Origin: Candidatus Hydrogenedentes bacterium UBA6118
GTDB lineage: Bacteria; Hydrogenedentota; Hydrogenedentia; Hydrogenedentales; SLHB01
NCBI GenBank assembly: GCA_002422525.1
Contig: DIWA01000015.1
Location: 33,797 to 97,796 of the forward strand
Reading direction: 5' to 3'
Length of the DNA stretch: 64,000 nucleotides
The notes beneath the pieces were generated by a model. That model was not told the DNA's origin. It ran no database searches and saw only the letters and a program-made list of their open reading frames with translations. Positions 10,556 to 42,833 of this stretch are shown here, in pieces. The position numbers and the translations under genes were made by a program. Position 1 is the first letter of the stretch, and each line of letters opens with the position of its first letter.

Positions 10556-10597
10556 AAACCGCGGGCGCGGCGGCAGGGAGGGCGTTCGGCGCGGGGG

Positions 10598-20956: not shown

Positions 20957-21121
20957 GCTGCGTCTACGGAGGGCGCGACCGGCGCCTCACTCTGCTGGTA
21001 CGCGGAAGCGAGCGCTTGATCGGATTGCAGCGGCCTTGATAGGGTGCGCGCTGATTGACGGGGTTTGCAGACCGACCGGCGCGGGCCCGTGCGCGCGGCG
21101 TGTCGGAGGGAGTTTCCAAGG

Positions 21122-22324
21122 GTGAGCGGTGAGAAGAGTCAGTTCACGCGCCTCGTAGAGCTGGGGTTCCGCGTTGCGGCGCACTGGAAGCCCATGACGC
21201 TGTTCGCCCTGATCGGGGGCGTGGTCCTTGGTCTCGCGGCGTACTACGTGCCGCCGCCCTCCTACACGTGCGAGGTGCTGGTGTATCTGCAGCCGCAGCC
21301 GTGGACCGGCGAGACGGCGGGGCGGATCGACCTGGAACAGGAGATTGTGTTCACGCCGAAGCCGTTCTCGGCGTACCTGTCGCGCCCGCCGGAGGCGAAG
21401 GACTACGTACAGATCATGACATCCGACGGGGTGTTGGGGGACGTGCTGGACCGGTTCGTGGAGCGTCACGGCAGCGAGTACCGCGAGAAGGAGATTCCCA
21501 CGCGCCAACGGCTGCGACGGACGATCTCGGCATATGCGCCGACGGTGCTCAGGACGCCGTATGAAGTGGAACACACGCCTACGATCTACCTGTCGACCAA
21601 GGCGCCGAAACCCGAGATGGCGTATCAGCTCATGGTGATCTACCTCGAGGTGATCCAGGAGTGGACGCGAGACCTGACGTACGCGGAGCGGGCGAAGAAG
21701 GCCTTCGCGTCGGTGGAGGCGGAGTACAACCGCCTGCTGGGCGAGCTCGATGCGTTGGACGCGGAGCGGATTGCGCTGGCGCGGGAGAACGCGGAGAAGC
21801 TGGAGGCCGTGCAGCACGAGTGGTCTCGCAAAGCCGCGGAGTACGAGGCGGAGACCGAGCGGCTGGTGCTGGAGCTGATGGGCGAGTGGACCGAGCGGAT
21901 CGCGGAGGCCCCGGACGGCGTTGCGCGGGAAGTTGCGAAGGAGGAGCGGGACCAGGCGATCGAGGCGCTGCGCGCGGAGCGGCGCTACGGGCTGGAGGAT
22001 ATCCTGCGGGCGGGCGAGGGGGCCTACAGCGCCCTGCGGCGGGAGTGCGAAATCGCCGAGCAGAAGCTCGAGCGACGGTACCGGATGGAGCTCGAGATCA
22101 CGCAGAACGTGGCCGCGGCGTTGACGCGGGCCGCGCCGGTGATCGCGGAGGAGTTCGAGGAGATCGTCGTGATGAACGAGCCGCGGATGCCGGAGGAGCC
22201 GGAGAAGGCGTCGGTGGTGCTGTTCGTGGCGGGCGGCGTCGTGTTGTGCGGTCTGGCGGCGCTGGCCTACGTGATTGGCAAAGTGCTGGTGGGAGACGTG
22301 CGGTCGGCGGTGCAGCAGGGATAG
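21122..22324 (+). CDS. polysaccharide chain-length determinant (Wzz/PCP-like) protein
   Basis: GTG at 21122 has a GGAGGG RBS. N-terminal TM after FRVAAHWKPMTLFALIGGVVLGLAAYYVPPPSYTCEVLVYL matches the Wzz N-terminal pattern. It has a long coiled-coil periplasmic region and a C-terminal TM VVLFVAGGVVLCGLAALAYVIG. Confidence 0.5.
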   Translation: MSGEKSQFTRLVELGFRVAAHWKPMTLFALIGGVVLGLAAYYVPPPSYTCEVLVYLQPQPWTGETAGRIDLEQEIVFTPKPFSAYLSRPPEAKDYVQIMTSDGVLGDVLDRFVERHGSEYREKEIPTRQRLRRTISAYAPTVLRTPYEVEHTPTIYLSTKAPKPEMAYQLMVIYLEVIQEWTRDLTYAERAKKAFASVEAEYNRLLGELDALDAERIALARENAEKLEAVQHEWSRKAAEYEAETERLVLELMGEWTERIAEAPDGVAREVAKEERDQAIEALRAERRYGLEDILRAGEGAYSALRRECEIAEQKLERRYRMELEITQNVAAALTRAAPVIAEEFEEIVVMNEPRMPEEPEKASVVLFVAGGVVLCGLAALAYVIGKVLVGDVRSAVQQG

Positions 22325-23093: not shown

Positions 23094-26000
23094 GTGAAGA
23101 CCAAACTCGGCGCTCGAACCTGGTTCATCGGCGCAGCCTTGCTTGCGGGAGCGGCGCTGCTGGTTGCGCCCGCGGCGCGCGCGCAGGACGACGTCCCGAC
23201 GGCGAGCTTCAACATCGAGGACGCCGTCCAGGACGGTCACTCGCTGTTGCCCACGCAGAACTGGACGCCGCTGGTCCGGCTCGAGTTGGCGTGGGACAGC
23301 CAGGACGCGCCCGCGCCGCGGGATCTGACGGGGATGGTGTATTACATCACCGGGGATCCCGTGGATGAGCGGTCGTGGAGTCGGTACGCCAGTCCGGAGA
23401 CGAAGCACCTCTATGAGTTCGCGATCATCCGGGAGGGGCAAGGCCCGGACGACGACGGCTATGGGGTGTTGGGCGACAACGACAGCGTCTGGTATGTCTG
23501 GGACGGCGAAGGCGACCCGGTCGGCGAAGTGACCGACCTGGGCGGGGCCCTGCGGTACGAGATGGACTTCGTGGGGGATGGCACGGAGGACAATCCCGAG
23601 TTCCCGATCCCGAACGGTTCCGCGGACTTTCCCGCGAGCTATTTCCTCGCGGTGCGCACGTCGGCGCTGTGGCACAACGGCATGCACATGAGCGTGCGCA
23701 TTCCGGTGGGCGGGCTCGACTGGAACCCCCGTTTCCCCGACGACTCGGCGACGGTGGACGAGGATCCGTTCGAGCCGGAGACGGCCTACTCGGCCAGTTT
23801 CGGCGCGTACGACGTGACGGGTTCGCTCACCTCCGACCAGAGTTACGTGTACACGAATACGTGGAACTACCCGAACTTCGTGTACACGCCGCAGCCGGAG
23901 TATTCGCGTCCGCGTTGGGACAGCTCGGCGACGGCGCTGCAGATCCTGAACGGCGAGTGGATTCAGCTTCGGCGGCTGTTTGCGATCGAGACGTGGTATG
24001 CGGTGATCGGGCTGAACATGCATTCAAGTTCAGCGTCCGTCATGGAGACGGCGACGCGGAGCGGGTTCGATCCGCTGCTGAATCCCGAGCCGCGCGGCGA
24101 CGTGGGCCGCGTGCGGACGGTCGCGGTGGACGGGGCCTACCCGATCGAGATGAACGTCGTCATGACGGACGTGGGCGGGGATCCGCTCGGGCCTCCGGGA
24201 AACGGCGGGTTCAATCCGCAGACTGGTCTTGAGACCATGACCTACGATGTGCTGTCCGCCGGCGGCGACATCATCGTCGACCGCGCGTACGAGGAGGACC
24301 ACGCGTTCAACGGCGTCTGGCTGTGGCGCGACGGCGGCAACAACGATTTCGACCGGCCAACGCCCGGCGCGAACGGCGCGACGTTCGGCGAGGACACGCC
24401 CGCGTTGCCGATGGGCTGGGCGATCGACGACGACCAGAACATCTTCATGCTGCCGGACGCCGGGCTCGGCGCGTACTGGGAGCATGTGGCGAACCCGCCC
24501 GGCGGCGGGGATCCCTGGTGGCGAATCACGCTGCAGTTCGGCAACAACCGCGGCGGCGCGGGGCGCATGGAGCCGACGCCGAACGGCGATGTGAACGCGC
24601 GGCCAAGCATCCAGTTCCACGATTACTTCATCACGGTGCGCGCGGACAGCGGCTACGCGGATGCGAGCGGCCGGTCGGGCGACGGCACGGGGATCACGTA
24701 CGGCGCCGAGACTCGGATGTACATCGAGCCGCGGTATACGACGCCGAGCAACGACGTGTTCGACGGTTCGATGGACATGGGCGGGCTGCTCGTGACGTCG
24801 CAGTTCCCGCTGGAGTGGTCGGGCGGCTGGCGCGAGCACCCGGCGTTGAGCCCGGTGAACGAGGACACGGGGCTGCGGCAGCAGGAGCCGTGGTGGCACC
24901 AACGCACAATGGATCGCAACAACGCGAAACTGGTGCGCTTCGGCGCCGAGATCCACGACCTCGTGATGACCTACGAGTCGAACAACGCGTTCTCGATGGC
25001 GCAGGGCGTGGACATCGATATCGCGGGCGGCGACAACTTCGGCAACCCGGCGTTCAGCGATCTGCTCGACGACCTCGGCTTTGACTTCTTCTCGATCGCC
25101 AGCTTCGCGCGGTGGATGGATCCGTTCGGGATCCGGTCGGGCGAGTTCATCGACGGCTACCGTACGGGCGTGGTGAACTGGCGGTTCGTGGACTTGGGGA
25201 TCGACGACAGCCAGAACGGCCCGATGCAGAAGCCGTATGAGACGGCGCCGTTCTTCAATCCGCTCGATCTGGCGCCGGCGGGTCCGCGTTCGTTCTTCTA
25301 TCCGAACCCGCCGCAGCAGCCGTCGCTTCCGTCGTATGCGACGTGGCCGCTTGGCGCGGGCGAATTCGCGAACAATCCGGGTATGCAGACGCTGCCTCCG
25401 GGCGAGTTCCCGCGGGAGATCAACTGGCGGCCGGCGGATCTGGGCACGCGGAAGCTGAAACAGCATATCGACGCGGACAGTCGCGCGACGGCGTTGCTGG
25501 GGTTCAACATGGCCGGCGCGAACGACCCGGTGACGAACGAGTTCGCGGCGATCTCGCTCGAGCAGATCACGGTGGCCCTGTGGGGTCCGGACACCAACAA
25601 CGACGGCGTGATGGACTTCTCGCCGGCGGACTTGAAGGCGCTGGACCCGGAGGGTCTGTCCGGCACATCCGGCGTGGCGATCTATGTCGACACGGGGAGC
25701 GGCACGTTCTCGGATCTTGCCGGGGGCGACCAGCCGCTTCCGCTGCGAAGCCTGAAGTGGGGCAGCGCGCCGGAATTCCTCGATGTGACGGGCGACGGCG
25801 AGCCGGATGACCTGAACGGCGACGGCCTGATCACCGGGCTGGACAAGGCGTGGGTGCTGCGGCTGCGTCCGCAGACAGCCTTCCGCGTGCCGGTCGAGGA
25901 CGCGAACATCGCGCCATTTGCGCGTTCGCTGCCGTCGGGCGCGGGCTCGGGCGGCGGCAAGACCGTGCTGGATCTGGGCGAAGAGATCGAGGGCGCGCCG

Positions 26001-28265
26001 TACTGGACGCAGAAGCCGCGCCTGGTGGACCTGGAGACGTATAACGAGGACGCGATCGCGCAGGCTGGACAGGGCATGGGCGACGGGTCGATTCCGGTGA
26101 CTCAGATCCCCGGCGACCCGGACGGCGGCGGCAACGCGGGTGACGACCTGTTCTTCGTAGTTCGGACGTCGGATGCAATCGGGCAGTTCCGGAAGTTCAC
26201 GGCGCTTGTGCCGGCGACGTTGCCGGAGCGGCCTGTACAGGACCGGACGGCGGGGATGCAGTTTGCGCCGTCGAACATCCCGGCCGCGGCCTATGGCAAG
26301 AACCACCCGGAGGAGTCGGGCGGTCCGTCGTTCTTCGAGCACGAGCTGATCGAAGCGAATGTGGCGGTGAAGCTGACGGATTTGACCGGGCAGGGGCAGA
26401 TGCTGTACGCGAACGGCCAGCCGACGGCGGTAATGGGTATTGACGCATCGACGAACCGCGGCGGGGGCGCGATTGTGGCGTCCGGCGAAGCGGGCGTTGG
26501 GGGTCCGGGCCAGTTCACCGCGGCGGGCGCGGGCTTCCCGCCCGGCGGGTTCGTGGGCTACCACCTGATCGATTCGGCGTATGAGTCGTACCTGATCACG
26601 GGGAACACGAACACGCAGTTGACGGTGCTGAGCGGCACGCCGCTTTCGGGGGCGTGGCGGATCGTACGTGATCCGACGTATCTGGAACAGGTTATCGTGG
26701 AGCTGTATCCGGAGGTGGAGGACGTCCAGAACTTCAACCTGCTGGAGCATCTGCTTCCGCTGAATATCAACCAGGATGTCAGCGGTGTGGCGCTGTACCG
26801 CGATAATGACATGCATCCCGACAATCAGAACGGGATCTTTGATCCGGGCGTCGACATCCCGCTGCAACTGGACTACGCGCCGTATATGATCGGCATGCAG
26901 GGCGAACCGCGGCATCAGGTGTTGTTCGTGTTCAGTTCGCCGGGAACGGATGACGTGCCTCTGCAAGGGTTCCCGGCCGGCCTGGCCAACCAGCCGCGGC
27001 GGCGCCAGGTGATCCCGGAGACGTTCGGCGCGACGCTGAGCGACCCGGACCGCGGACCGGACTTCTTCGTGGTGATGCGGGCGGCCTCGAAGGTAGAGGA
27101 GCCGGTGGCGTTCCGGGTCGGCATCGTGTCGTGGGGTCCGAACACGCCGACGGCGCCGGATCCGGACACGTTCCCGCCGCCGCCGGTGGCGACAGTGGGC
27201 GAGTTCGACATCTTCTCGGAGTTCCCGTGGGGCGGGCGCGGCCTCGGCTTCGTCAGCTTCTTTGCGGATATCCGAGACTATGACGCGCGTGACTTCAGCG
27301 GATACAACTGGGTCCGTACGCATCCGAACAAGAACGTGCGGACAAACGTCCTGACCATTGACGAACAGACGGCGCAACCGGGCGACGTTGTGATCACCTC
27401 GGTGTCCCACGACAAGTTGCCGCAGGTGACGCCGGACGGCGGGATCGTGCTGGTGATTCGCGGCAGCGGGTTCGGCACGACGCCGCGGGTGACGCTGAAC
27501 AACACGTTGCTCGAGGTGCAGTCGGCGACGGATACGTCGATCAGCGCGCAGATTCCGGGCGGGTCGACCTTCACGGACATGCTGGTGTTGACGGTTACCA
27601 ACCCGAAGACCGAGAAGACGGGTACGTGGACGGCGATTACCCTTGTTCCGGACGACGGGGGCTTCGGCGACGCGCCGTCGATCGCGTCGGTGTCGCCGAG
27701 CAGCGGCAGCGCGGCCGCGTTCCCCGTGACGATCGTCGGCGCCCGGTTCAGTGATCCGATCGTGCGGTTTGACCAGGCGGAGATGCCGATCGTTGAATGG
27801 ACGCCGACGCGCGTGGTGGTGGCGTTCCCCTCATCGGGTCTGCCCAAGACGGGCCCGTTGGACGTCACCGTGGAGAATGGCGGCTCGGGTCTGTTCGCGA
27901 CGGCGGTGGACGCGTTCACGTATCTGAATATGCCGGGGACCGGGGTGCGGCCGTGCTTCATCGCGACGGCGGCGTACGGTTCGCCGTTGTCCGGGCAGTT
28001 GGACGTGTTCCGCGCATTCCGTGACGATGTGCTGCTGAAGAGCGCGGCGGGCGCGGCGGCGGTCGACCTGTATTACACGGTGAGCCCGGGGTTCGCGGAC
28101 GCGGTTGCGGCGCACCCGGCGCTGGCGATGGCGGTGCGGGCGGCGCTGACGCCGATCGCGTGGGCGCTGAAGTGGCCTGCGTGGGCCGCCGCCGTTGCGG
28201 TCGGTCTGACGTTGTGTGCGGCGGCGGCGTGTTTGCGGCGTCGCCGGGCGCGCGCGGCCGTGTGA
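23094..28265 (+). CDS. giant secreted cell-surface protein (~1,723 aa) with tandem IPT/TIG-like domains, Ca-binding D-x-D-G motifs and C-terminal sorting-signal-like module
   Basis: GTG at 23094 follows GGAGGT by 8 nt. Signal peptide VKTKLGARTWFIGAALLAGAALLVAPAARA-QDD. Ca-loop motifs DTNNDGVMDF and DDLNGDGLITGLD. Two Ig-like IPT/TIG segments (VITSVSHDK...IRGSGFG; IASVSPSSGSAAAFPVTIVGARF). C-terminus CFIATAAYGSPLSGQLDVFRAFRDDVL...DLYYTVSP, then TM AAAVAVGLTLCAAAAC and LRRRRARAAV. Confidence 0.75.
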   Translation: MKTKLGARTWFIGAALLAGAALLVAPAARAQDDVPTASFNIEDAVQDGHSLLPTQNWTPLVRLELAWDSQDAPAPRDLTGMVYYITGDPVDERSWSRYASPETKHLYEFAIIREGQGPDDDGYGVLGDNDSVWYVWDGEGDPVGEVTDLGGALRYEMDFVGDGTEDNPEFPIPNGSADFPASYFLAVRTSALWHNGMHMSVRIPVGGLDWNPRFPDDSATVDEDPFEPETAYSASFGAYDVTGSLTSDQSYVYTNTWNYPNFVYTPQPEYSRPRWDSSATALQILNGEWIQLRRLFAIETWYAVIGLNMHSSSASVMETATRSGFDPLLNPEPRGDVGRVRTVAVDGAYPIEMNVVMTDVGGDPLGPPGNGGFNPQTGLETMTYDVLSAGGDIIVDRAYEEDHAFNGVWLWRDGGNNDFDRPTPGANGATFGEDTPALPMGWAIDDDQNIFMLPDAGLGAYWEHVANPPGGGDPWWRITLQFGNNRGGAGRMEPTPNGDVNARPSIQFHDYFITVRADSGYADASGRSGDGTGITYGAETRMYIEPRYTTPSNDVFDGSMDMGGLLVTSQFPLEWSGGWREHPALSPVNEDTGLRQQEPWWHQRTMDRNNAKLVRFGAEIHDLVMTYESNNAFSMAQGVDIDIAGGDNFGNPAFSDLLDDLGFDFFSIASFARWMDPFGIRSGEFIDGYRTGVVNWRFVDLGIDDSQNGPMQKPYETAPFFNPLDLAPAGPRSFFYPNPPQQPSLPSYATWPLGAGEFANNPGMQTLPPGEFPREINWRPADLGTRKLKQHIDADSRATALLGFNMAGANDPVTNEFAAISLEQITVALWGPDTNNDGVMDFSPADLKALDPEGLSGTSGVAIYVDTGSGTFSDLAGGDQPLPLRSLKWGSAPEFLDVTGDGEPDDLNGDGLITGLDKAWVLRLRPQTAFRVPVEDANIAPFARSLPSGAGSGGGKTVLDLGEEIEGAPYWTQKPRLVDLETYNEDAIAQAGQGMGDGSIPVTQIPGDPDGGGNAGDDLFFVVRTSDAIGQFRKFTALVPATLPERPVQDRTAGMQFAPSNIPAAAYGKNHPEESGGPSFFEHELIEANVAVKLTDLTGQGQMLYANGQPTAVMGIDASTNRGGGAIVASGEAGVGGPGQFTAAGAGFPPGGFVGYHLIDSAYESYLITGNTNTQLTVLSGTPLSGAWRIVRDPTYLEQVIVELYPEVEDVQNFNLLEHLLPLNINQDVSGVALYRDNDMHPDNQNGIFDPGVDIPLQLDYAPYMIGMQGEPRHQVLFVFSSPGTDDVPLQGFPAGLANQPRRRQVIPETFGATLSDPDRGPDFFVVMRAASKVEEPVAFRVGIVSWGPNTPTAPDPDTFPPPPVATVGEFDIFSEFPWGGRGLGFVSFFADIRDYDARDFSGYNWVRTHPNKNVRTNVLTIDEQTAQPGDVVITSVSHDKLPQVTPDGGIVLVIRGSGFGTTPRVTLNNTLLEVQSATDTSISAQIPGGSTFTDMLVLTVTNPKTEKTGTWTAITLVPDDGGFGDAPSIASVSPSSGSAAAFPVTIVGARFSDPIVRFDQAEMPIVEWTPTRVVVAFPSSGLPKTGPLDVTVENGGSGLFATAVDAFTYLNMPGTGVRPCFIATAAYGSPLSGQLDVFRAFRDDVLLKSAAGAAAVDLYYTVSPGFADAVAAHPALAMAVRAALTPIAWALKWPAWAAAVAVGLTLCAAAACLRRRRARAAV
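27954..28262 (+). other. C-terminal conserved module (copy 1) plus TM helix plus Arg-rich tail
   Basis: CFIATAAYGS...FRAFRDDVLL...GAAAVDLYYTVSPGFADAV...WAAAVAVGLTLCAAAACLRRRRARAAV. Confidence 0.6.
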
Positions 28266-28396
28266 AGGGGTCCGACGGGAGTCGGGGAAGCCCACGGTAC
28301 ATATGCTAGGACCCCTCGGGGGGTCTGGAACCGGCCTTTCCGCAGGATGCGATCTCGATCGGGGATCGCTTTGGGAAGGCCCTGAGGAGCCAACAG

Positions 28397-30772
28397 GTGA
28401 GAACGAGAATCTGGCACGTGATGCTGGTGGGCCTGTGTGGGATCGCCCTGCTGTTCGCAGCGCCCGGGGCCGAGGCGTTCTTCCCCCTGGGCGTGTTCCT
28501 GACGGATCTGGAATACGGGGATCCGTTGCGCATCCCGCTGTGGACGCTGAACTACATGGACACGAACGGGGACCGGGACGTGTCCGGAGCGAACGAGGGC
28601 ATCCCGATCACGTTCCAGGGCGGCGATGACGGATGGACCGTGCAGGAGATGCAGGCCCTGCAGGATGGGTTCGAGGTATGGGAGCGCGTGCCGTCTTCGT
28701 TCCTCGCCTTCCAGTACACCCAGCCGGTGGAGCAGGCGCTCGAGACGTCGGATGACTTGGGGTCGATCGACTTCTTCAACTACGTGGCGAATGACGCGGG
28801 CGGCGCGCTGGTTCCGGCGGGGTTCGCCGGGATCACGTTCATCTCGTATGTGGCCGAGAGCGGTTTCTTCACATACAACGGCCAGGCGATCGAGGTGACG
28901 GGGCCGCAGATCCTGGATGCGGATATCGCGATCTACGGGGATGTGATTCAGACCAGCCGCGACATTGATTTCTCGAATGCCACGGACCAGTTCGATGCGG
29001 GGGTGCCGCTGTCGGGTCTGGTGGTTCAGTTGGCGGGGATGATGGCGGGGCTTGGCCAGAGTCCGATGACCAATACCGATGAAGTGCAGGTGCAGACGGC
29101 GGGCGGCGAGCTGACGCTGCTCGTGGATCCGCTGGTGTACGCGGACCGGGTGTTCTCGGGGAACCTGCAGATGGTGGGCGTGACGCCGAGCATGTACCCG
29201 AATCTGGTGTACACGGACCTCGGGAATGACATCTACCGGCTGGCGTGGGAGGACCTCGCGCCGGACGACATCGCGGGGATCACGTTCCTGTATCCGCGGG
29301 GCGACTTGTCGAACTTCTTCACGGTGCAGCAGGAAGCGCGGTACGCGTCGCGGGCCGGGTTCCCGACGGCGCCGATCGCGGGCGGGTTCATCGAGGCCTG
29401 GTGTGACGTGGACGACAACGCGAACACGCCGCGCGTACCGATGTTCAGCACGCTGACGGGGATGTATGAGAACCAGGCGCAGTTCTCCGGGTTCTTCCGA
29501 CTGTACAACCTGTTCCGGCAGATCGAGTCGCCGACGGCCGTGCCGTTCACCGCGTCGTATACGCTTACGCTGAGCGAGCTGGAGCCGCCGGAGGGGTTCA
29601 CGGCGGACTTCTTCGACTCGCTGCACAACGGGCTGTACGCGGGCGGCGGCGGGTTTGCGTTCTCGACGAACTACCCGCATCAGACGTTCCTGGAAGGCGG
29701 CGAGAATATCATGAGCCGGGACCGGCATGATGAGGGCACGCCGCTGATGTACGATCCGGTGCGCGCGGAAGTGGTGAGCGCGGTGTCGGGGCGCACGCTC
29801 GATCAGATGCTGCCGGGAACGCGGCCGATGTTCGGCGAGTCGGATGCGCAGAACGTGTGTCCGTTGACGCTCGCGGCGCGGCTGGCGAAGACGCAGAACG
29901 GTCCGCGGCTGTTGCGGCAGTTCCGCGACGACGTGTTGCTGACGAATGCGCTGGGCGCGGCCGCGGCGGACGCCTACTACCGGATGGCGCCGACGATGAG
30001 CGCGTTCCTGATGGAGTACCCGATTGCGATGAGGACGGCGCAGGCGATGGCGGAGCTGACGGAATGGGGCATCGCGCATGCGCGGATGCTCGCGGCGCTG
30101 TTGTTGGCGGCGATCGGCGCGGCCTTCGCGATGCGGCGGCGGGTCGTACGCGCGGGCGTCGCGGCGGGATTGATCCTTGCTGCCGCGATCGTGTTCGCGG
30201 GCGGCACGGCGGACGCGCAGGCGATCGACTATTCGATCGAGAAGGCGGTCTCGCTGAGCGATGACATTCTGACCGGTGAAGTGACGTCGCTGCAGTGCCG
30301 GATGAACGACAACGGGCAGATCATCACGGACGTCTCGATCGAGATCGAGGACACGATGAAGGGCGCGTTGAATCGTACGGGGACGCTGCATTTCAGCCAG
30401 ATTGGCGGCGAAGTGAACGGCGTCACGACGTATGTACCGCAGTATCCGCGCTGGCGGCAGGGCGAGGAGGTCGTCGTGCTGATGAAGCGGAACGCGGTGT
30501 TCGGCCACATGGCGGTGTACGGCGTCGGCGGGAAGTTCGAGGTGAAGACGGACGAGGAGACGGGCAAGAAGTACGTCGTGGGTTCGACGGCGCTGGCGAA
30601 GCTGGGCCTGGATAGAGCGCGGCCGACGATAGAGAAGCGTGACGGAGCCGAGGCGTCGGAAGACGGCCCGGCGCAGGGCGTGGACCTGGACGCGTTCAAG
30701 GCGTATCTGGAGTCCGTGGCGGCGGAGCAGGCCGCGAACGAGGAGGCGGCGCGGACGGTGTCCGACGAGTAG
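28397..30772 (+). CDS. large secreted protein (791-aa ORF) with internal copy of the C-terminal sorting-like module, then an in-frame second signal-peptide-like segment and a 190-aa domain
   Basis: GTG at 28397 follows GAGGAG by 7 nt. Signal peptide VRTRIWHVMLVGLCGIALLFAAPGAEA. The module CPLTLAARLAKTQNGPRLLRQFRDDVLL...DAYYRMAP spans aa 488-578 and ends in TM MLAALLLAAIGAAFA plus MRRR. Then VVRAGVAAGLILAAAIVFAGGTADAQA and a soluble domain follow to the stop at 30770-30772. Confidence 0.65.
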   Translation: MRTRIWHVMLVGLCGIALLFAAPGAEAFFPLGVFLTDLEYGDPLRIPLWTLNYMDTNGDRDVSGANEGIPITFQGGDDGWTVQEMQALQDGFEVWERVPSSFLAFQYTQPVEQALETSDDLGSIDFFNYVANDAGGALVPAGFAGITFISYVAESGFFTYNGQAIEVTGPQILDADIAIYGDVIQTSRDIDFSNATDQFDAGVPLSGLVVQLAGMMAGLGQSPMTNTDEVQVQTAGGELTLLVDPLVYADRVFSGNLQMVGVTPSMYPNLVYTDLGNDIYRLAWEDLAPDDIAGITFLYPRGDLSNFFTVQQEARYASRAGFPTAPIAGGFIEAWCDVDDNANTPRVPMFSTLTGMYENQAQFSGFFRLYNLFRQIESPTAVPFTASYTLTLSELEPPEGFTADFFDSLHNGLYAGGGGFAFSTNYPHQTFLEGGENIMSRDRHDEGTPLMYDPVRAEVVSAVSGRTLDQMLPGTRPMFGESDAQNVCPLTLAARLAKTQNGPRLLRQFRDDVLLTNALGAAAADAYYRMAPTMSAFLMEYPIAMRTAQAMAELTEWGIAHARMLAALLLAAIGAAFAMRRRVVRAGVAAGLILAAAIVFAGGTADAQAIDYSIEKAVSLSDDILTGEVTSLQCRMNDNGQIITDVSIEIEDTMKGALNRTGTLHFSQIGGEVNGVTTYVPQYPRWRQGEEVVVLMKRNAVFGHMAVYGVGGKFEVKTDEETGKKYVVGSTALAKLGLDRARPTIEKRDGAEASEDGPAQGVDLDAFKAYLESVAAEQAANEEAARTVSDE
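29858..30142 (+). other. C-terminal conserved module (copy 2), located internally in the 791-aa ORF
   Basis: Same Cys / [FL]RxFRDDVLL / G / YY..AP / hydrophobic helix / RRR order as copy 1. Confidence 0.6.
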
Positions 30773-30823
30773 GGCGGACGTCGGTGCGGCGGCCGAGTCG
30801 AACGAGCTGGTAAGTAGTTGATC

Positions 30824-30866
30824 GCGGCGGTCTCAGGGGTTCTGGGGCCGCCGCGTTGTGTGTGTG
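30824..30866 (+). terminator. GC-rich hairpin followed by a (TG)5 / U-G-rich tract
   Basis: GCGGCGG (30824-30830) pairs with CCGCCGC (30848-30854), then GTTGTGTGTGTG. It lies 50 nt after the stop of the 791-aa ORF. Confidence 0.35.
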
Positions 30867-31121
30867 CGGGGGCGGGGGGAGCGCGGGGTTTTGTAGCGCG
30901 TCGCGGCGAAGGGATACACTGGCAACCGCGCCCGTAACCCGAACGGCGTCAACCGCGTGCGGGCAGGGCGCGTTCCCGAAGCGGGTGATCATCCCGGGGG
31001 CGATTCGGCGCATGCGTGGGTCTGCCGCCGAGCGCGTAGCGCGCGGCCGGGATGGAGTGCGCCGACGCAGGCGACGGGGTGTCGTTTGCGGCGTACCTTG
31101 GCTGGAGTTATCGACGAAATC

Positions 31122-32030
31122 ATGTTGCGCGGTCTGCTTATCCGACAGGCGTTGATCGCGACGGACTTGGTCTTGGCGGGACTGGTCGTCGTGATGGCGT
31201 ACTTTGTGATGGCGCGGATCCTTGGGGATGACGCGGTGACGGCGGCGCCTGTGGAGCGGGTTGAGACCTCGACGGATGTGGGCGTGTTGCGCAAGCCGGC
31301 GGAACGCGGGGACTACGACGGGATCATCGCAGGCAATCTCTACGGTCCGGCGGCGGACGTGACGCGCGAAGATCCGGTGGAGGAGGCGGTGGTCGAGGAG
31401 CAGCCGTTGCGCCCGACGACGCTGCCGCTGAAGCTGTACGGGACGCTCGCGCTGGATCCCGAGGATCCGCTGGCGACGGCGGTGATCGAGGATGTGACGA
31501 CGCGCGTGAAGCAGACGTACTATCTGAACCAGCCGGTGAAGGATGGGTACGTGCTGCGCGAGGTGCACAAGCGCCGGGTCGTGTTGTACAACGAGTCGAC
31601 CGGGGCTCTGGAGGAGCTGGCGCAGGAGGACTTGCAGGTGGCGGCGTCCGAGACGCGGAGCGCGGCGAGTGCGCGGCCCGCGGGACGGAGTCCGGCCGGG
31701 GCGAACCAGGTGGTGGTGAACCGGCTCGACACGCAGCGCGAGCTGGAGTCAATGAACTTCGCGGAGTTCTACGCGCAGGTGAGTCCGCAGCTTGTGCGGG
31801 ACGAGGCGGGGAACGTGAAGGGCATCACGTCGCCGAATATCGACAAGGTGCCGCTGGCGCAGCGGTTCGGGTTCCAGAGCGGGGACGTCGTCAAGAAGAT
31901 CAACGGGGTGCAGATCGACAGCGAACAACGTGCGCTGGAAGTGATCAACCGTTTTCAGAATTCGAGCAGCCACTGGCTGACGATAGAGCGGAATGGCCGA
32001 GAACAGACACTCGTCGTGCGGGTGGAGTGA
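31122..32030 (+). CDS. GspC-like T2SS inner-membrane protein with C-terminal PDZ domain
   Basis: ATG at 31122. N-terminal TM LIATDLVLAGLVVVMAYFVMA. C-terminal PDZ-like segment VKGITSPNIDKVPLAQRFGFQSGDVVKKINGVQIDS. It sits immediately upstream of the secretin gene. Confidence 0.5.
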   Translation: MLRGLLIRQALIATDLVLAGLVVVMAYFVMARILGDDAVTAAPVERVETSTDVGVLRKPAERGDYDGIIAGNLYGPAADVTREDPVEEAVVEEQPLRPTTLPLKLYGTLALDPEDPLATAVIEDVTTRVKQTYYLNQPVKDGYVLREVHKRRVVLYNESTGALEELAQEDLQVAASETRSAASARPAGRSPAGANQVVVNRLDTQRELESMNFAEFYAQVSPQLVRDEAGNVKGITSPNIDKVPLAQRFGFQSGDVVKKINGVQIDSEQRALEVINRFQNSSSHWLTIERNGREQTLVVRVE

Positions 32031-32043
32031 CTGGGGACGTGGA

Positions 32044-34542
32044 ATGCTGAACTATCGAGATCCGTATGCGTGGGCGCGACGCGCGAGGAGGATCGGGCGG
32101 CGGACCGGCGTCGGGCTTGTCGCGGTCGCGACCGCGTTGGCGTTGACGGCGGGATGGGTTGCGTGGGTTCCGGCGGAGCGCGCCTGGGCGCAGGACGACG
32201 AACCGTACTACGAGGAGGAGTACATCGAGCCGGATCCGCAGGCGGAGGTGGACGAGGGGGCGGAGTACGAGGAGTACGTCGAGGAGGAGGAGCCTGTGTT
32301 GCGGCCTGTGGCGCCGCAACGGCCGGCGCCGCCGGCGCGCCCGCAGCCGATCCGGCCTTCGCGCGTACAACCGACCCAGGTGCGGCCTGGGACGACCCCG
32401 GCGGCCCCGGGGGCCGCGGCGGAGCCGAACCCGTACCGACCGAAAGAAGGGGCGGCGGCGACGGAGCCGGTGAGCATCGACTATGAGGGGGTGGAGCTGC
32501 AGGAGATCGTGAAGGCGATCGGCGCGGCGACCGGACGGAACTTTCTGCTCGACCCGCAGATCGGCGCGATCCCCGTGACGTTGATCTCGCACGCTCCGGT
32601 TCCCGCGAACATGCTGCTGGACGTGCTGCAGGCGGTGCTCGTCACGCACGGCTTCACGATGCGCGACACGCTGGACGGGAAGCTGATCAAGATTCGACCG
32701 ATTGACGAGGAGGGCGAGAATGCGCCGCTGGTGGTCGGGTCGACGGAGTCGACGGCGCGGTATGACGATTTCGTGACGCACATCGTGCCGGTGCGGTATG
32801 CGTCGGCCGAGGAGCTTGCGCGCCTGCTGCCGCGGCTCGGATCGCGGACGGCGACGGTGGACGCCTACGGGCCGACGAACACGCTGATCCTGTCGGACAA
32901 TGCGCGGGGCATTGAGAACATGCTGACGTTCCTCGCCGAGATTGACGTGCCCGGGTCGGAAGTGGTCATGGAGACGTTCACGCTGGATTACGCGCGGGCG
33001 GAAGTGGTGGCGGAGCAGATCCGGGAAGTGTTGATGGGCGACGAGGGCGTCGCAGGGGATCGGGCGGCAGCGGTGGCTCGGGCGCGGGCCCCGCAACCGG
33101 TGCGGCCGACGGTGCGGACGCCGGTGAGCGCGCAGGCGCAGCAGACGATCATCGGATCCGAGGAGCCGGTGTTGCAGATCGTGGCGGTGGATCGGCTGAA
33201 CATGCTGATCGTGCGGGCGAACGAGTCGCTGATGCAGCAGGTGCGATCGCTGGTGGATCGGCTGGACGTGCAGACGCCGATCGAGGCGAACAACCTGCAC
33301 GTGTATCCGTTGCTGAACGCGGACGCGGAGTCGGTGGCGGAGAAGCTGAACGCGGTGATCGGGCTGACGCCGCGGGCGGCGTCGGACCAGGGAGGGGGCG
33401 ACGCGCAGGCGGCGATCACCGAGGTGCAGCCGTTCGAGAAGAAGGTGCTGGTCGAGGCGTATCCGGAGACGAAGTCGCTGTTGGTCGTTGCGGCGCCGCA
33501 GGACTACGAGGTGATCAAGGAGCTGATCGCGCAGTTGGATGTGGCGCGACGTCAGGTGCACATCGAAGCGTTGATCATGGAGGTCAACATCCAGGATCGC
33601 TACCAGCTCGGGGTTGAGCTGAGCTCGTTGAGCGCGGAAGACGGATTCGCGCTGAATAACGTGATCTCGTTGGCGAACATCATGGCGAACGGGCCGCTGG
33701 CGGGCGTGGGCGGATCGGACAGTCCGGTGTTGACGACCGGCGTGCTGGACGGCGTGGTGTATCTGCCGGTGGCGGGCGAGGACGGCGCATTGACGCTGCA
33801 GGCGTTCCCAAAGATCCCGCTGTTGCTGACGGCGCTGGACTCAATCACGGACCTGGACGTGTTGTCGCAGCCGTTGCTGACGACGGTGGACAACGAGGAA
33901 GGGAAGGTGACGATCGGTCAGGAGGTGCCGGTGACAACGGGGACGCAGTCCTCGCTGAACCAGAGCGCGTCGAACAGCAGCGTTTACAGCCGGATCGAGC
34001 GCAAGGACGTCGGCATCAAGATGACGGTGCAGCCGCAGATCAGCGAGGGCGACAACATCTTCCTGGAGCTGGAGGTGGAAGTGTCGCAGCCGATCCAGAG
34101 CTCGGTGGGGGCGGATCCGAACATTGTGGGCCCGACGTTCTCGAAGTCGAACATCCAGACGCCGCTGATCGTGCGCGATGGATCGACGGCGGTTGTGGGC
34201 GGTCTGATCAGCGAGAGCATCGATCGGTCGACGCGACAGACGCCGTATTTCGGCGATGTGCCGGTGGTCGGGTGGCTGTTTCGGCGGAAGAACGACCAAC
34301 GGAGCAAGCGCAACCTCGTGGTGTTGGTGACCCCGCACGTGATCAAGGAGGGGGTCGACACGGACCGGATCACGGACTACCGACTGGACGAGTTCGGAGA
34401 GGCGAATGCGGATGTCGTGTTTGAGCAAGGGTTTGTGGAACGGATCCGGCGACGTCACGAGACGCGCACGCAGCACCATCCGAGCGGGTCGCGCGTGGAG
34501 CGTCTGCGCACAAACGAGTTTGATCGAGGGGAACTGCGGTAG
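32044..34542 (+). CDS. gspD: type II secretion system secretin GspD
   Basis: About 830 aa. Signal peptide RRIGRRTGVGLVAVATALALTAGWVAWVPAERAWA, a long Pro/Ala-rich linker, N0-N3 secretin-N domains, and the C-terminal secretin domain (VVGGLISESIDRSTRQTPYFGDVPVVGWLFRRKNDQRSKRNLVVLVTPHVI). Confidence 0.85.
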   Translation: MLNYRDPYAWARRARRIGRRTGVGLVAVATALALTAGWVAWVPAERAWAQDDEPYYEEEYIEPDPQAEVDEGAEYEEYVEEEEPVLRPVAPQRPAPPARPQPIRPSRVQPTQVRPGTTPAAPGAAAEPNPYRPKEGAAATEPVSIDYEGVELQEIVKAIGAATGRNFLLDPQIGAIPVTLISHAPVPANMLLDVLQAVLVTHGFTMRDTLDGKLIKIRPIDEEGENAPLVVGSTESTARYDDFVTHIVPVRYASAEELARLLPRLGSRTATVDAYGPTNTLILSDNARGIENMLTFLAEIDVPGSEVVMETFTLDYARAEVVAEQIREVLMGDEGVAGDRAAAVARARAPQPVRPTVRTPVSAQAQQTIIGSEEPVLQIVAVDRLNMLIVRANESLMQQVRSLVDRLDVQTPIEANNLHVYPLLNADAESVAEKLNAVIGLTPRAASDQGGGDAQAAITEVQPFEKKVLVEAYPETKSLLVVAAPQDYEVIKELIAQLDVARRQVHIEALIMEVNIQDRYQLGVELSSLSAEDGFALNNVISLANIMANGPLAGVGGSDSPVLTTGVLDGVVYLPVAGEDGALTLQAFPKIPLLLTALDSITDLDVLSQPLLTTVDNEEGKVTIGQEVPVTTGTQSSLNQSASNSSVYSRIERKDVGIKMTVQPQISEGDNIFLELEVEVSQPIQSSVGADPNIVGPTFSKSNIQTPLIVRDGSTAVVGGLISESIDRSTRQTPYFGDVPVVGWLFRRKNDQRSKRNLVVLVTPHVIKEGVDTDRITDYRLDEFGEANADVVFEQGFVERIRRRHETRTQHHPSGSRVERLRTNEFDRGELR

Positions 34543-34547
34543 CCGCC

Positions 34548-36302
34548 ATGGTTGAGATGGCCGAGAGCCGGATCTGCGAGATTCTCGTGCGTAACGGCCG
34601 CCTGCATCCGGAGCAGGTGGACGAGGCGCTTGAGCTGCAGAAGATCCGCCCGAAGCGGATCGGCGAGCTGCTGTTGGATCTCGGGTATATCGAAGAGGAT
34701 GAGCTGTTGGAAGCGCTGAGCGAGCAGTTCGGGATCCCGTTCGAGACGGGGATTCGCGAGCAGCTCGACTCGTCGCTGACGACGCGGGCGCCGATCGGGT
34801 TCATCCGCGAGTACCACATGGTGCCGCTGCGCAAGAACGGCTCGGCGTACTACGTGGCGCTGAACGATCCGGCGAACCTGCCGTTGCTGGACGATCTGCG
34901 GCTGCTGTTGGGCGGGCCGGTGACGCCGGTGCTGTGTCGTCGGGAAGATATCCAGGCGGTGATCGACGGGTACTTTGACCAGCAGGGCGAGAACGCGGCG
35001 GACATGCTGGACAGCATCGTGCTGGACGAGCATGACGACGATGAGCCGGGGTCGATCGACCTGATGGACGGCGATCGCGACCTGCTGGACCTGGCGAACG
35101 AAGCGCCGATCATCAAGCTGATCAACCTGCTGATCTCGGGGGCGGTGCGCGAGCGCGCGTCGGACATTCACATCGAGCCGTTCGAGCGCGAGGTGAAGGT
35201 GCGGTATCGCATCGACGGCGTGCTCTACGACAAGTTCAACGTGCCGAAGTCGCAACAGGCGGCGGTGGTGTCGCGCATCAAGATCATGGCGCGGCTGAAC
35301 ATCGCGGAGCATCGGCTTCCGCAGGACGGGCGCATCAAGATCCGGCTGAGCGGGAAGGAGATCGACATTCGCGTGTCGGTGATCCCGATTCAGCACGGCG
35401 AGCGCGTGGTGATGCGTATCCTGGAGAAGGGCAGCTTCCTTTTCGGGCTCGAAGAGCTGGGGATGGCGCGACAGGACTACGAGCTGGTCGACAAGCTGTT
35501 GCGGAGCCCGCACGGGATCATGCTGGTGACGGGCCCGACGGGCTCGGGAAAATCGACGACGCTATACGCCTGTCTGCAGCGGGTGCTGTCGCCGGATATC
35601 AATGTGATCACGGTCGAGGACCCGGTCGAGTATCAGATGTCGGGGGTGGGCCAGATTGAGGTGAAGCCGAAGATCGGGCTGACCTTCGCGCACGCGCTGC
35701 GGAGCATTCTGCGGCAGGACCCCGATGTGATTCTGGTGGGCGAGATTCGCGATCTCGAGACGGCCGACATGGCGGTGCACGCATCGCTGACGGGGCACCT
35801 GGTGTTCTCGACGCTCCACACGAACGACAGCGCGGGGGCGATCACGCGGCTGGTGAACATGGGGATCGAGCCGTTCCTGGTGACGTCGTCGACGATTGCG
35901 ATCATGGCGCAACGGCTTGTGCGGAACATCTGCCCGGACTGCAGGGAAGCGTACGAGCCGGATCTCGAGAGTCTGCTTGAGCTCGGGCTGACCGAGGAGC
36001 AGGCGCGGGGCAAGTCGGCGTATCGGGGGCGGGGCTGCGCGAAGTGCCAGAACCGGGGCTATTACGGCCGGACGGGGATCTTCGAGCTGCTGGTGATGAC
36101 GCCGCGCGTACAGAATCTGGCGTTGCGGGGGGCGGACTCGAACCAGATCAAGCGCGAGGCGAAGAAGTATGGCATGCGCACGCTGCGCGAGGACGGGGCG
36201 GCCAAGGTGATGCGCGGCGTTTCGACCATCGAGGAGGTGTTGCGGGTGACGCGCGACGATATCCTCGAGGAGCTTCCGGAGCCGGGCGATGGCGGTCTAT
36301 GA
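34548..36302 (+). CDS. gspE: T2SS ATPase GspE
   Basis: N-terminal T2SE_N domain. Walker A GPTGSGKSTT, Asp box, Walker B ILVGEIRD. Tetracysteine motif CPDC...CAKC. Confidence 0.9.
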   Translation: MVEMAESRICEILVRNGRLHPEQVDEALELQKIRPKRIGELLLDLGYIEEDELLEALSEQFGIPFETGIREQLDSSLTTRAPIGFIREYHMVPLRKNGSAYYVALNDPANLPLLDDLRLLLGGPVTPVLCRREDIQAVIDGYFDQQGENAADMLDSIVLDEHDDDEPGSIDLMDGDRDLLDLANEAPIIKLINLLISGAVRERASDIHIEPFEREVKVRYRIDGVLYDKFNVPKSQQAAVVSRIKIMARLNIAEHRLPQDGRIKIRLSGKEIDIRVSVIPIQHGERVVMRILEKGSFLFGLEELGMARQDYELVDKLLRSPHGIMLVTGPTGSGKSTTLYACLQRVLSPDINVITVEDPVEYQMSGVGQIEVKPKIGLTFAHALRSILRQDPDVILVGEIRDLETADMAVHASLTGHLVFSTLHTNDSAGAITRLVNMGIEPFLVTSSTIAIMAQRLVRNICPDCREAYEPDLESLLELGLTEEQARGKSAYRGRGCAKCQNRGYYGRTGIFELLVMTPRVQNLALRGADSNQIKREAKKYGMRTLREDGAAKVMRGVSTIEEVLRVTRDDILEELPEPGDGGL

Positions 36303-37539
36303 ATACCAGGCCATAGCGCGGAGCTCGGGCAAGCGGGTGAAGGGCGTGATCGACGCCGACTCGCCTGCGGCGGCGCGACGCAAACTGCGCGAACAGGACA
36401 TGATGCCGACGGCGGTATCGGAGTCGTTCGGCGGCGGCGGGGCGAAGCCGGCGGGGCGTGCGAGGTCGGCGAACGGGTCGGGCAAGGCGCCGGCGGGGGG
36501 ATTCGGGCGCGTTCCGCAGCACGAAGTGTCTGTGATGACGCGGCAGATGGCGGTGTTGTTGCAGGCGGGGATGCCGTTGGTCGAGGCGCTGTCGGCGCTG
36601 ATCGAGCAGACGGCGAACGTGCGGCTGAAGAAGATCATTTACGACATTCGCGACCGGGTGAACACGGGCGCGCGGATGGCGGATGCGCTGGGCGCGCACC
36701 GGCGGGTGTTCTCCGAGTTGTACATCAACATGGTCGGCGCGGGCGAGGCCAGCGGGGCGTTGGAGCAGGTGCTGTTCCGGCTGGCGGACATGCAGGAGCG
36801 ACAGGTGCGGCTGTCGCGGCGGCTCCGCAGCACGATGATGTATCCGGCGTTCATGGCGGTCGTGGGCGTGAGCGTGGTCTCGTTCATGATGGTGGTGATC
36901 GTGCCGAAGATCACGGCGCTCTTCGACAAGCAAGGGCGGGAACTGCCGGCGATCACCGATTTCCTGATCGGCGTGTCTCGGTTTGTCGGGAACTACTGGC
37001 CGGCGTTGGTCCTGGCGGTGGTCGGGTCGTTTGCGTTGTGGCGGATGTGGGTGCGACGTCCGGCGGGGCGCCTGCAGTGGGACCGGCTGAAACTGCGCGC
37101 GCCGCTGTATGGGCCGTTGTACGTGAAGATCATCAGCGGCCGCATCGCGCGGACGCTGGGCACGATGCTGAGCAGCGGGCTGACGATGATGACGGCGCTC
37201 GAAGTGGTGAAGTCCGTCGTAGGCAACGCAGTGATTGAGTCCTCGATGGAGGACGTGAAGGCGAACGTACGGCGCGGCAAGGACCTCGCGGTGCCGCTGC
37301 GGGAGATGGGGGTGTTCCCGTCGATGATGCTGAGCATGATCGAGCTGGGACAACGCAGCGGCGAACTCGAAGGGATGCTGCTCAAGGTGGCGGACACCTA
37401 CGACGACGAAGTGGAGATGAGCGTAGACGGTCTGGTGAGTCTGCTCGAACCGGCGATGATCGTGGTGATGGCGCTGATCGTCGGGTTCCTGGTAATCGCG
37501 ATCCTGCTGCCGATCATGGACATGAGCAGCGGATTCTGA
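36289..37539 (+). CDS. gspF: T2SS inner-membrane platform protein GspF
   Basis: 416 aa with a duplicated GspF/PilC domain (two copies of the conserved periplasm-facing loop) and three TM segments. Its start overlaps the gspE stop. Confidence 0.9.
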   Translation: MAVYEYQAIARSSGKRVKGVIDADSPAAARRKLREQDMMPTAVSESFGGGGAKPAGRARSANGSGKAPAGGFGRVPQHEVSVMTRQMAVLLQAGMPLVEALSALIEQTANVRLKKIIYDIRDRVNTGARMADALGAHRRVFSELYINMVGAGEASGALEQVLFRLADMQERQVRLSRRLRSTMMYPAFMAVVGVSVVSFMMVVIVPKITALFDKQGRELPAITDFLIGVSRFVGNYWPALVLAVVGSFALWRMWVRRPAGRLQWDRLKLRAPLYGPLYVKIISGRIARTLGTMLSSGLTMMTALEVVKSVVGNAVIESSMEDVKANVRRGKDLAVPLREMGVFPSMMLSMIELGQRSGELEGMLLKVADTYDDEVEMSVDGLVSLLEPAMIVVMALIVGFLVIAILLPIMDMSSGF

Positions 37540-37585
37540 CGGCTTGGCCGCGACGCGCGGGCCAAGGGAAAAAGAGAGGTAACGC

Positions 37586-38026
37586 ATGGAGAACCGAAAA
37601 CGGCGAAGCGGATCGGGGATCTCGGGTTTCACCCTGGTCGAGCTGATGGTGGTGATCGTGATCATCGGGCTGCTGGCGGCGTTGGTGGTGCCGAAGTTCG
37701 TGGCCCGCACCGACGATGCCAAGGTGGCCGCGGCGAAGGCGCAGATCCACTCGCTGAAGCAGGCGCTCGAGATGTTCAAGCTGAAGACGGGGAGCTATCC
37801 GTCGACCAGCGAGGGGCTCGAAGCGTTGGTCAATAACGAGTATGAGAACTTCCTCGAGCAGGACGTGATCCCGCTCGACCCCTGGAACAACCCCTATGTG
37901 TATGCGTCGCCGGGCAGCGAGGGGCACGACTTCGAGATCATCTCCTATGGCGAGGACGGGGCGCCGGGCGGTACGGACTTCGCGGCGGACATCGTGAGCT
38001 ACAACCTGCAGGGCACTCGGAACTGA
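37586..38026 (+). CDS. gspG: T2SS major pseudopilin GspG
   Basis: Prepilin leader plus N-methylation site GFTLVELMVVIVIIGLLAALVVP. The GspG core (AKAQIHSLKQALEMFKLKTGSYP) has the conserved pseudopilin C-terminal residues. Confidence 0.9.
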   Translation: MENRKRRSGSGISGFTLVELMVVIVIIGLLAALVVPKFVARTDDAKVAAAKAQIHSLKQALEMFKLKTGSYPSTSEGLEALVNNEYENFLEQDVIPLDPWNNPYVYASPGSEGHDFEIISYGEDGAPGGTDFAADIVSYNLQGTRN

Positions 38027-38045
38027 CGACCGCGCGAGGCGGGCC

Positions 38046-42805: not shown

Positions 42806-42833
42806 CGGGCGACAGAGACCGGAGTACGCAAGG

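Follow-up and report, generated by a model that had tools for sequence, protein, structure and literature searches.

The CFI-box-CTERM domain at a Hydrogenedentota type II secretion locus: C-terminal, mid-protein and transmembrane-less copies of a widespread tail family

Precedents for a Cys-bearing C-terminal tag that uses a type II secretion system (T2SS) are MYXO-CTERM with myxosortase (PMC11980579) and, listed beside it, GlyGly-CTERM with rhombosortase (PMC6219818). MYXO-CTERM proteins, the partners of the CPBP-family enzyme myxosortase (MrtX), are displayed at the cell surface in a T2SS-dependent manner; their tag opens with an invariant Cys, followed by a transmembrane (TM) helix and an Arg-rich tail (PMC11980579; bioRxiv 10.1101/2023.06.07.544157). 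GlyGly-CTERM is a short, tripartite signal (Gly-rich region, TM helix, basic residues) that is confined to Proteobacteria and occurs on secreted proteases; its substrates, such as VesB, are exported by the T2SS and stay surface-associated (PMC6219818; PMC3237569). Here we analyze a 64-kb stretch of contig DIWA01000015.1 from Candidatus Hydrogenedentes bacterium UBA6118, referred to below as the window, in which two adjacent open reading frames upstream of a T2SS cluster, ORF A and ORF B, and a trypsin-like protease gene elsewhere encode copies of one recurrent Cys-led module. This module is the CFI-box-CTERM domain, NCBIfam model NF041770, and having been catalogued already it is not new. Its three copies in the window are a canonical C-terminal one (ORF A), a divergent mid-protein one (ORF B) and a C-terminal one without a TM helix (trypsin-like protease). 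The two genes, the three copies and a further segment of ORF B are located as follows.

23094-28265, plus strand: ORF A, a gene call of 1,723 amino acids (aa) for a secreted protein
27954-28172, plus strand: helical CFI box of copy 1, ORF A aa 1621-1693, reading CFIATAAYGS ... FRAFRDDVLL ... G ... YYTVSP ... R..L.P
28173-28262, plus strand: hydrophobic helix (aa 1694 to about 1714) and Arg tail (LRRRRARAAV, aa 1715-1723) of copy 1
28397-30772, plus strand: ORF B, a gene call of 791 aa with a signal-peptide-like N-terminus, as judged from its sequence
29858-30151, plus strand: copy 2, the mid-protein CFI-like module of ORF B with its first TM segment (TM1) and basic cluster, from the ORF B sequence and its NF041770 match
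30152-30217, plus strand: second hydrophobic segment of ORF B, aa 586-607, at about columns 800-826 of the family alignment
5455-5688, minus strand: copy 3, a CFI-box-CTERM domain that ends a trypsin-like secreted protease (encoded at 5452-7077, minus strand)

Copy 1 begins at base 27954, the first base of the codon for Cys1621, and the tail of ORF A reads CFIATAAYGSPLSGQLDVFRAFRDDVLLKSAAGAAAVDLYYTVSPGF...TM...LRRRRARAAV. It matched NF041770 at 86.2 bits against a curated cutoff of 40 bits (E 9e-25, model positions 1-68 of 69), and it carries every residue conserved in at least 90% of the family except the Leu of LRxFRD, which is Phe. The helix and Arg tail of copy 1 look like a stop-transfer anchor, with an N-out/C-in orientation predicted from the positive-inside rule. 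Copy 2 spans aa 488-582 of ORF B (29858-30142, the last base being that of Arg582) and reads CPLTLAARLAKTQNGPRLLRQFRDDVLLTNALGAAAADAYYRMAPTM...TM...MRRR. The module proper (aa 488-563) is followed by TM1 (aa 564-578) and then by a basic cluster, MRRRVVR (aa 579-585). This copy retains the Cys, LRxFRDDVLL, the Gly, YY and the Pro, and has lost FIATAAYG, reading CPLTLAARLA in which the Cys alone is kept. Its NF041770 score of 36.9 bits falls just under the cutoff (E 2.3e-9, model positions 17-63), and two ORF B homologues (P0052 and P0043) exceed that cutoff with 43.3 and 42.4 bits. Copy 3, which reads CPLKAAYGDGS ... LRAFRDQVL ... YYEAAP and so keeps C..(K)AAYG, scored 48.1 bits; the gene that carries it has a Trypsin_2 Pfam match. 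Copies 1 and 3 lie at the extreme C-terminus of their proteins, copy 2 is internal (aa 488-585 of 791), and a TM helix with a basic cluster is present in copies 1 and 2 and absent from copy 3.

When a hidden Markov model (HMM) built without copy 2 was run on the six-frame translation of the window, it recovered ORF A (E 2e-39), copy 3 (E 5e-15) and ORF B (E 4e-13). With pairwise BLASTP, copies 1 and 2 could be aligned over only 38 residues, with 47% identity and E 5e-4, so the homology of these two copies rests on the profile-level results. An hhalign comparison of the two alignments named A1 and A2 (E 4e-25) was set aside as independent evidence because A1 contains copy 2.

A preliminary description of this DNA had reported a repeated Cys-led module at 27954-30142 on two giant secreted proteins directly upstream of a T2SS, and had alluded to a third copy. 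Its coordinates are exact to the base, both sequences that it quoted are present, and the similarity exceeds chance by NF041770 and by our own HMM. The third copy was found on the trypsin-like protease, and the T2SS genes do lie downstream. Both proteins have signal-peptide-like starts, though ORF B, at its length, is not a giant. The description had also placed the motif outside the named C-terminal sorting signals that it considered. Copy 1, however, matches NF041770 over the full model, and the claim of a new sorting signal therefore fails, since the domain already has a curated model.

The CFI-box family is very large. In a search of 1.84 billion cluster representatives (clusters at 50% identity) with a profile of 22 modules, 32,228 representatives matched at E<=1e-3, of which 24,316 reached E<=1e-10; nearly always, the protein ended in the matching segment. 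The exact string CFIATAAY was found in at least 599 stretches, from many bacterial phyla and Archaea, in a scan of one genome per GTDB species. Gene neighborhoods were sampled at the 80 loci most similar to the query. These best 80 came from Hydrogenedentota, Nitrospirota, Desulfobacterota/Geobacteraceae, Gammaproteobacteria, Nitrosomonas, Gemmatimonadota, Oligoflexus, Dehalococcoidia and Bacillota among the bacteria, and from Bathyarchaeia and Halobacteriota among the archaea. Chloroflexota are among the carrier phyla, and individual tails were inspected. Three carriers are encoded in the window itself, and two metagenome-assembled genomes (MAGs) contributed two loci each.

Among 176 modules, 171 were C-terminal; the Cys lay a median of 102 aa from the end of the protein and was usually preceded by a Gly-rich linker. 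A strong TM helix was present in 127 of the 176 and was followed by at least two basic residues in 119 of these 127; many of the remaining modules have a moderately hydrophobic helix. Over 180 modules, the positions conserved at 90% or more were CFIATAAYG, LRxFRDxxL, G, V, YY, SP, A and RxxLxP. Given these invariant motif positions, it is unlikely that membership in NF041770 is a compositional artifact. A hydrophobic N-terminus was found in 62 of 92 full-length members by a crude signal-peptide test, and the passengers are unrelated to one another: they include an S8 subtilase, a trypsin-like protease, giant proteins of immunoglobulin (Ig)-like repeats, proteins resembling matrix metalloproteinases (MMPs) and proteins with 'choice-of-anchor' domains. 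The domain is made up of an invariant Cys after a Gly-rich linker, a helical part of about 70 residues that bears CFIATAAYG, LRxFRDxxL, G, YYxxSP and RxxLxP, and, usually, a hydrophobic helix with an Arg cluster.

AlphaFold2 modeled copy 1 as all-helical with a mean predicted local distance difference test (pLDDT) score of 90.7, placing helices at module residues 8-13, 17-31, 37-59 and 61-79 and the TM helix at residues 81-108. At about 70 residues, the helical domain confidently predicted ahead of the TM helix greatly exceeds the short motif of a classic sorting signal. Foldseek comparison of the module with solved structures gave 0 matches, and a sequence search of the PDB gave no match for the module or for ORF B. 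Hint- or intein-like autoprocessing, an idea prompted by the 'G|CF' junction, was rejected, because the module is helical throughout and has too few residues to form a Hint fold.

ORF B differs from the typical carrier in holding its module in mid-protein. Its signal-peptide-like start is followed by a matrixin/MMP-fold domain, a beta domain, the CFI-like module and a TM hairpin; a second, C-terminal beta domain and a long helix complete the protein (AlphaFold2 pLDDT 77.9). Its 28 homologues range from 603 to 869 aa, the alignments of 26 span 88% or more of the query, and all that could be named come from Candidatus Hydrogenedentes/Hydrogenedentota MAGs. Across 27 aligned ORF B sequences with 31-77% identity, C488, R507, R510, D511, L514, G520, Y528 and P532 are invariant. 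This invariant core and the alignment of the homologues indicate that the mid-protein CFI-like module is no local accident; by that alignment, ORF B represents a family that is conserved in Hydrogenedentota and carries its CFI module in mid-protein, a feature beyond the database entry. The idea that the internal Met of MRRRVVR begins a gene of its own was considered and rejected: the coverage of the homologues is as given above and the Met lacks conservation, so that ORF B is a single gene.

Directly after the Arg cluster, aa 586-607 of ORF B form a stretch of about 18 hydrophobic residues with a family-conserved A-x-A|Q end, and this segment looks like a signal peptide or signal anchor set inside the protein, just before its C-terminal domain (aa 608-791, about 185 aa; 30218-30769). 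Such an arrangement suggests that signal peptidase may free the C-terminal domain and that ORF B may be a two-part polyprotein. The two halves appear to be parted by the CFI module, TM1, the Arg cluster and the internal signal-peptide-like segment. The N-terminal domain was assigned to the matrixin/MMP fold by Foldseek (target-normalized TM-score about 0.6). In the window, this domain has lost the HExxH zinc site (VVQLAGMMAGLGQSP), and the full HExxGHxxGLxH motif is retained in only 4 of the 27 aligned sequences. The C-terminal beta domain gave weak Foldseek matches to the NTR/TIMP-like modules 1uap and 6xzu (target-normalized TM-score 0.42-0.45). It would be unusual for a single membrane-split polypeptide to combine a protease-like domain with an inhibitor-like one, but the similarity to NTR is weak.

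Mid-protein sorting motifs are known from the midcut-by-XrtH family (NF033207), which like ORF B has a motif, a TM helix and an Arg cluster in mid-protein, followed by a further extracytoplasmic domain. ORF B differs from it in having no PEP motif, and no exosortase is present. As a candidate member of that family ORF B was rejected, with a score of 18.5 bits against a cutoff of 45 (E 0.0016, aa 538-645), and the match probably reflects mere TM/Arg/TM composition.

ORF A has a signal-peptide-like N-terminus (aa 1-30, ...LLVAPAARA|QDD, judged in the same way), and most of its passenger region is without a family match. Near its end, directly before the CFI-box-CTERM domain, lie IPT/TIG or choice-of-anchor-Z repeats (TIG and CoaZ_rpt_PGGG matches). 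'Choice-of-anchor' domains (NF058597, NF012200, NF041766) are found on the passengers of other carriers as well: ORF A has the choice-of-anchor-Z repeats, at 39.4 bits against a cutoff of 30, and a giant CFI-box protein of Geomonas bears types D and U. These models cover the passengers, not the tail, and say of the tail no more than that it is treated as one interchangeable anchor among several. Such a swap is seen directly at one of the 10 loci that encode ORF A orthologues (33-46% identity). On this Hydrogenedentota-like contig (L004, 5131-5631), the orthologue has no CFI box and ends instead in ...FLCAGGQGGSSGLPGADAAVMLMTAGLLWLLGRTRKGSAARAERQ, where a TM helix and RTRK come after a short motif rich in Cys and Gly. 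No NCBIfam CTERM model matched this tail, which could therefore be an uncatalogued short sorting tail.

The gene pair is followed in the window by the T2SS cluster, with one element between them.

30957-43343, plus strand: T2SS cluster of gspC (with PDZ), D, E, F, G, H-like, I-like, J, K, L and M, from Pfam matches and gene calls
30823-30855, plus strand: terminator-like hairpin between ORF B and gspC, with a 15-bp stem, 11 G-C pairs and a T/G-rich tail, from a consensus scan only

Within the T2SS cluster there is no prepilin peptidase gene. With this hairpin in between, ORF A and ORF B may not share a transcript with the T2SS genes. The two genes are adjacent in all 10 related loci, even where a T2SS is absent, and gspCDEF lies directly downstream of the pair in six of the eight related loci that could be assessed (seven of nine with the window included).

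CFI-box genes also lie within or beside T2SS or type IV pilus (T4P) clusters in two other phyla. In a Nitrospirota MAG (Nitrospirae bacterium JdFR-88; locus L051, 2277-10713), an S8 subtilase with a 103-bit CFI-box-CTERM domain is encoded between gspF and gspG. This subtilase also has a fervidolysin-like prodomain and an fn3 domain, and the secretin ORF of the same locus has a fervidolysin-type prodomain match near its C-terminal end. In Geomonas oryzae (L081), at a second Geobacteraceae locus (L053) and at one from Syntrophorhabdaceae (L059), giant CFI-box proteins are encoded two genes past pilM-N-O and a secretin, and in a Hydrogenedens MAG (L024) a CFI-box giant adjoins pilB and pilS/R-like genes. 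Of about 70 non-orthologous loci, eight had a type IV filament marker within 10 kb; about two would be expected by a back-of-envelope figure for random 14-kb windows. These data are suggestive of a T2SS/T4P link beyond Hydrogenedentota, perhaps in one subfamily only.

The CFI box has points in common with both precedents named at the outset. Like MYXO-CTERM, it opens with an invariant Cys, ends in a TM helix and an Arg-rich tail, and sits on many unrelated passengers, and its carrier genes are here linked to T2SS clusters; the swapped tail of the L004 orthologue is a short Cys/Gly-rich one of that general style. In contrast to the MYXO-CTERM motif, in which the Cys motif abuts the TM helix, the CFI box has about 73 residues, predicted to be folded and helical, between the two. 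ORF A and ORF B gave no NCBIfam MYXO-CTERM match, no gene for a CPBP protease was found in the window, and CFI boxes are also present in lineages that lack an outer membrane. The parallel to GlyGly-CTERM is the case of L051, where a T2SS operon includes the gene of an S8 subtilase that carries a CFI box. The two tags differ in that GlyGly-CTERM has no sequence match to the CFI box and no rhomboid gene is present in the window, and in that the CFI box is long and found in both prokaryotic domains.

Candidate processing enzymes were sought in the window and around the sampled loci. Pfam scans gave no match to sortase, exosortase, rhomboid or CPBP families in any major ORF of the window, in agreement with the preliminary description, which had seen no sortase-like gene there. 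Among the 80 CFI-box loci, the only recurrent neighbors were T2SS genes, at the orthologous Hydrogenedentota loci, and histidine kinase/sigma-54 regulator and ABC ATPase families, which are generic and cluster by paralogy. A 'PilSR' partner was considered and dropped, as a PilS-type N-terminus is present in the L024 kinase only. With NCBIfam at E<=1, the only sorting-type models to match ORF A or ORF B were NF041770 and the sub-threshold midcut_by_XrtH model; PEP-CTERM, GlyGly-CTERM, MYXO-CTERM, LPXTG and the other named CTERM models gave no match to either protein.

The domain was also compared with the eight attributes that Haft lists for small C-terminal sorting signals (bioRxiv 10.1101/2023.06.07.544157, Methods). 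It shares a C-terminal site, several carriers per genome, an invariant signature, a helix with an Arg cluster in most members, signal peptides, unrelated passengers and, at L004, an orthologue with a different tail. It departs from them in size, as the signals that Haft describes are small, with a short motif directly at the TM helix, and about 73 residues lie between the two here.

On balance, we favor the CFI box as an envelope sorting or anchoring module. After Sec export, the C-terminal helix and cytoplasmic Arg tail would stop transfer. The passenger would then stay tethered to the cytoplasmic membrane from outside, and its membrane-proximal element would be the helical CFI box. The box itself would most likely be the site at which a partner or enzyme recognizes or handles the protein, possibly acting at the invariant Cys. 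In diderms, such as this Hydrogenedentota organism, tethered proteins would probably go on to a T2SS or secretin machine that displays or releases them, by analogy with MYXO-CTERM and myxosortase (PMC11980579) or GlyGly-CTERM and rhombosortase (PMC6219818); in monoderms and archaea, the TM anchor alone could provide display. For the diderm members, the balance within this reading tilts modestly toward cleavage. We infer cleavage, lipidation and dependence on the T2SS; given the long folded domain, the members without a TM helix and the lineages without a T2SS, cleavage and a T2SS requirement are unproven. A much more specific joint proposal would make CFI-box-CTERM the tag of a widespread sorting pathway, in which an enzyme or partner reads the box, perhaps at the Cys, and diderms use T2SS or T4P-type secretins; ORF B and its relatives would be 'mid-cut' polyproteins whose MMP-like and C-terminal halves are split at the CFI module and the A-x-A, and ORF A and ORF B could be dedicated cargo of, or an accessory complex for, the adjacent T2SS. 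That all of this holds together is unlikely.

Several observations weigh against a sorting pathway that acts through an enzyme and the T2SS. The domain is carried in Archaea, Bacillota and Chloroflexota, all without a T2SS, so a T2SS requirement cannot be general. Two of the related Hydrogenedentota loci (L004 and L006) have no T2SS downstream of the ORF A/ORF B pair, and in the window a hairpin of strong terminator-like type parts ORF B from gspC. As the 80 loci are those closest to the query, the T2SS/T4P enrichment may describe one subfamily only. All-against-all clustering of the ORFs within 10 kb of the CFI box at these loci gave no recurrent protease- or sortase-like partner. The known intramembrane sorting enzymes use a short motif adjacent to the TM helix, not a Cys that lies about 73 residues of predicted folded helices away from it. 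About 10% of modules, including copy 3 and members from Halobacteriota and Dehalococcoidales, clearly lack both the TM helix and the basic tail; this is unlike the substrate of a purely intramembrane enzyme, which should not tolerate loss of the TM helix. Finally, a literature search on the domain name and motif found no paper and no experiment. The sorting-signal logic of the preliminary description thus stands for most of Haft's attributes and not for the long folded spacer or the TM-less members. The T2SS parallel that it drew has some comparative support, from the synteny of the pair, L051 and the pil loci, and is not general, given the T2SS-free carriers. As for the outcome that it had named as refuting its proposal, an already described sorting domain with a known enzyme, half came true: the domain is described, and no processing enzyme was found.

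Three other explanations bear on the same evidence. The CFI box could be a permanent, uncleaved anchor, a membrane-proximal stalk or dock whose TM helix and Arg tail are kept for life, with neither an enzyme dedicated to it nor any functional link to the T2SS. Such an anchor would account for a helical domain that is long, confidently folded in prediction and under its own selection, for the lack of a sortase-like gene in the window or recurrent in the 80 neighborhoods, for the monoderm and archaeal carriers, in which a TM anchor suffices for surface display, and for the terminator-like hairpin ahead of gspC. It would, however, trap the secreted proteases and adhesin-like Ig-repeat giants of diderms in the periplasm, and modules without a TM helix cannot serve as anchors at all. 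The position of CFI-box genes in or beside T2SS/secretin clusters in three phyla and the short, Cys-containing tripartite tail of the processed type on the L004 orthologue are likewise at odds with it, and we judge it somewhat unlikely. A local paralogous duplication, or a mere Ala-rich, high-GC compositional likeness with no wider family, was suggested by the short pairwise BLASTP alignment and the Ala-rich sequences of copies 1 and 2. It is refuted, with practically no probability left to it: an independent curated model matches all three copies, the three passengers are mutually unrelated, and the 32,228 clusters extend over many phyla and Archaea with invariant motif positions. On this point, the preliminary description was right to expect a wider family and not a simple local duplication.

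A further possibility is that the modules are docking units, the C-terminal one of ORF A and the internal one of ORF B pairing in or at the membrane so that the two proteins make up a T2SS-associated envelope complex, with TM-less copies docking on TM-bearing partners. Here the constant adjacency of ORF A and ORF B at all 10 related loci, whether or not a T2SS is present, would find an explanation, as would the invariance of the module core across the 27 ORF B family sequences and the existence of TM-less modules; the loss of the catalytic HExxH from the MMP-like domain in most ORF B members suggests a structural role. The pair is nevertheless conserved at L004, where the ORF A orthologue lacks the CFI box, and most of the 32,228 family members are single unrelated proteins with no ORF B-like partner nearby. 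Docking as the general function of the module is thus quite improbable, and sorting or anchoring in the envelope is the function that we prefer.

The CFI box is among the largest C-terminal tail families for which the literature search found no paper, experiment or enzyme. What the present analysis adds to the database entry is the mid-protein variant in ORF B, the position of the ORF A/ORF B pair upstream of a T2SS, the TM-less copy, the anchor swap at L004 and the T2SS/T4P neighborhood across phyla. Handles for study are provided by the gene pair next to the T2SS, the mid-protein and TM-less versions, the orthologue with a swapped tail and the cultivated carriers Geomonas and Oligoflexus. 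If the link to T2SS/secretins is true, the paradigm of MYXO-CTERM and GlyGly-CTERM would extend to many more phyla.

Other features of the window were recorded in passing. Directly upstream of ORF A, a 419-aa ORF (21065-22324) had no Pfam or NCBIfam match beyond a weak one of coiled-coil type; at two related loci (L002 and L005), the gene upstream of the ORF A orthologue encodes a TPR and SLT lytic transglycosylase protein instead. The window has a G+C content of about 67%, and its GC skew was positive in all 2-kb bins (+0.09 to +0.24) despite genes on both strands, an unusually strong and uniform strand asymmetry. On the minus strand, a radical SAM/SPASM protein gene (10598-11935) adjoins the FtsY gene (9563-10597), and a SAM hydroxide adenosyltransferase-like gene lies at 12608-13921. 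A possible small ORF on the plus strand (9083-9421) has a signal-peptide-like N-terminus and an Ala/Pro-rich tail. Past the T2SS genes, a minus-strand cluster at 46370-51985 comprises a GldG-like ABC_transp_aux gene, a DUF4340 gene and an ABC ATPase gene, and a NiFe-hydrogenase/Nuo51-like cluster, also on the minus strand, occupies 52826-57423.

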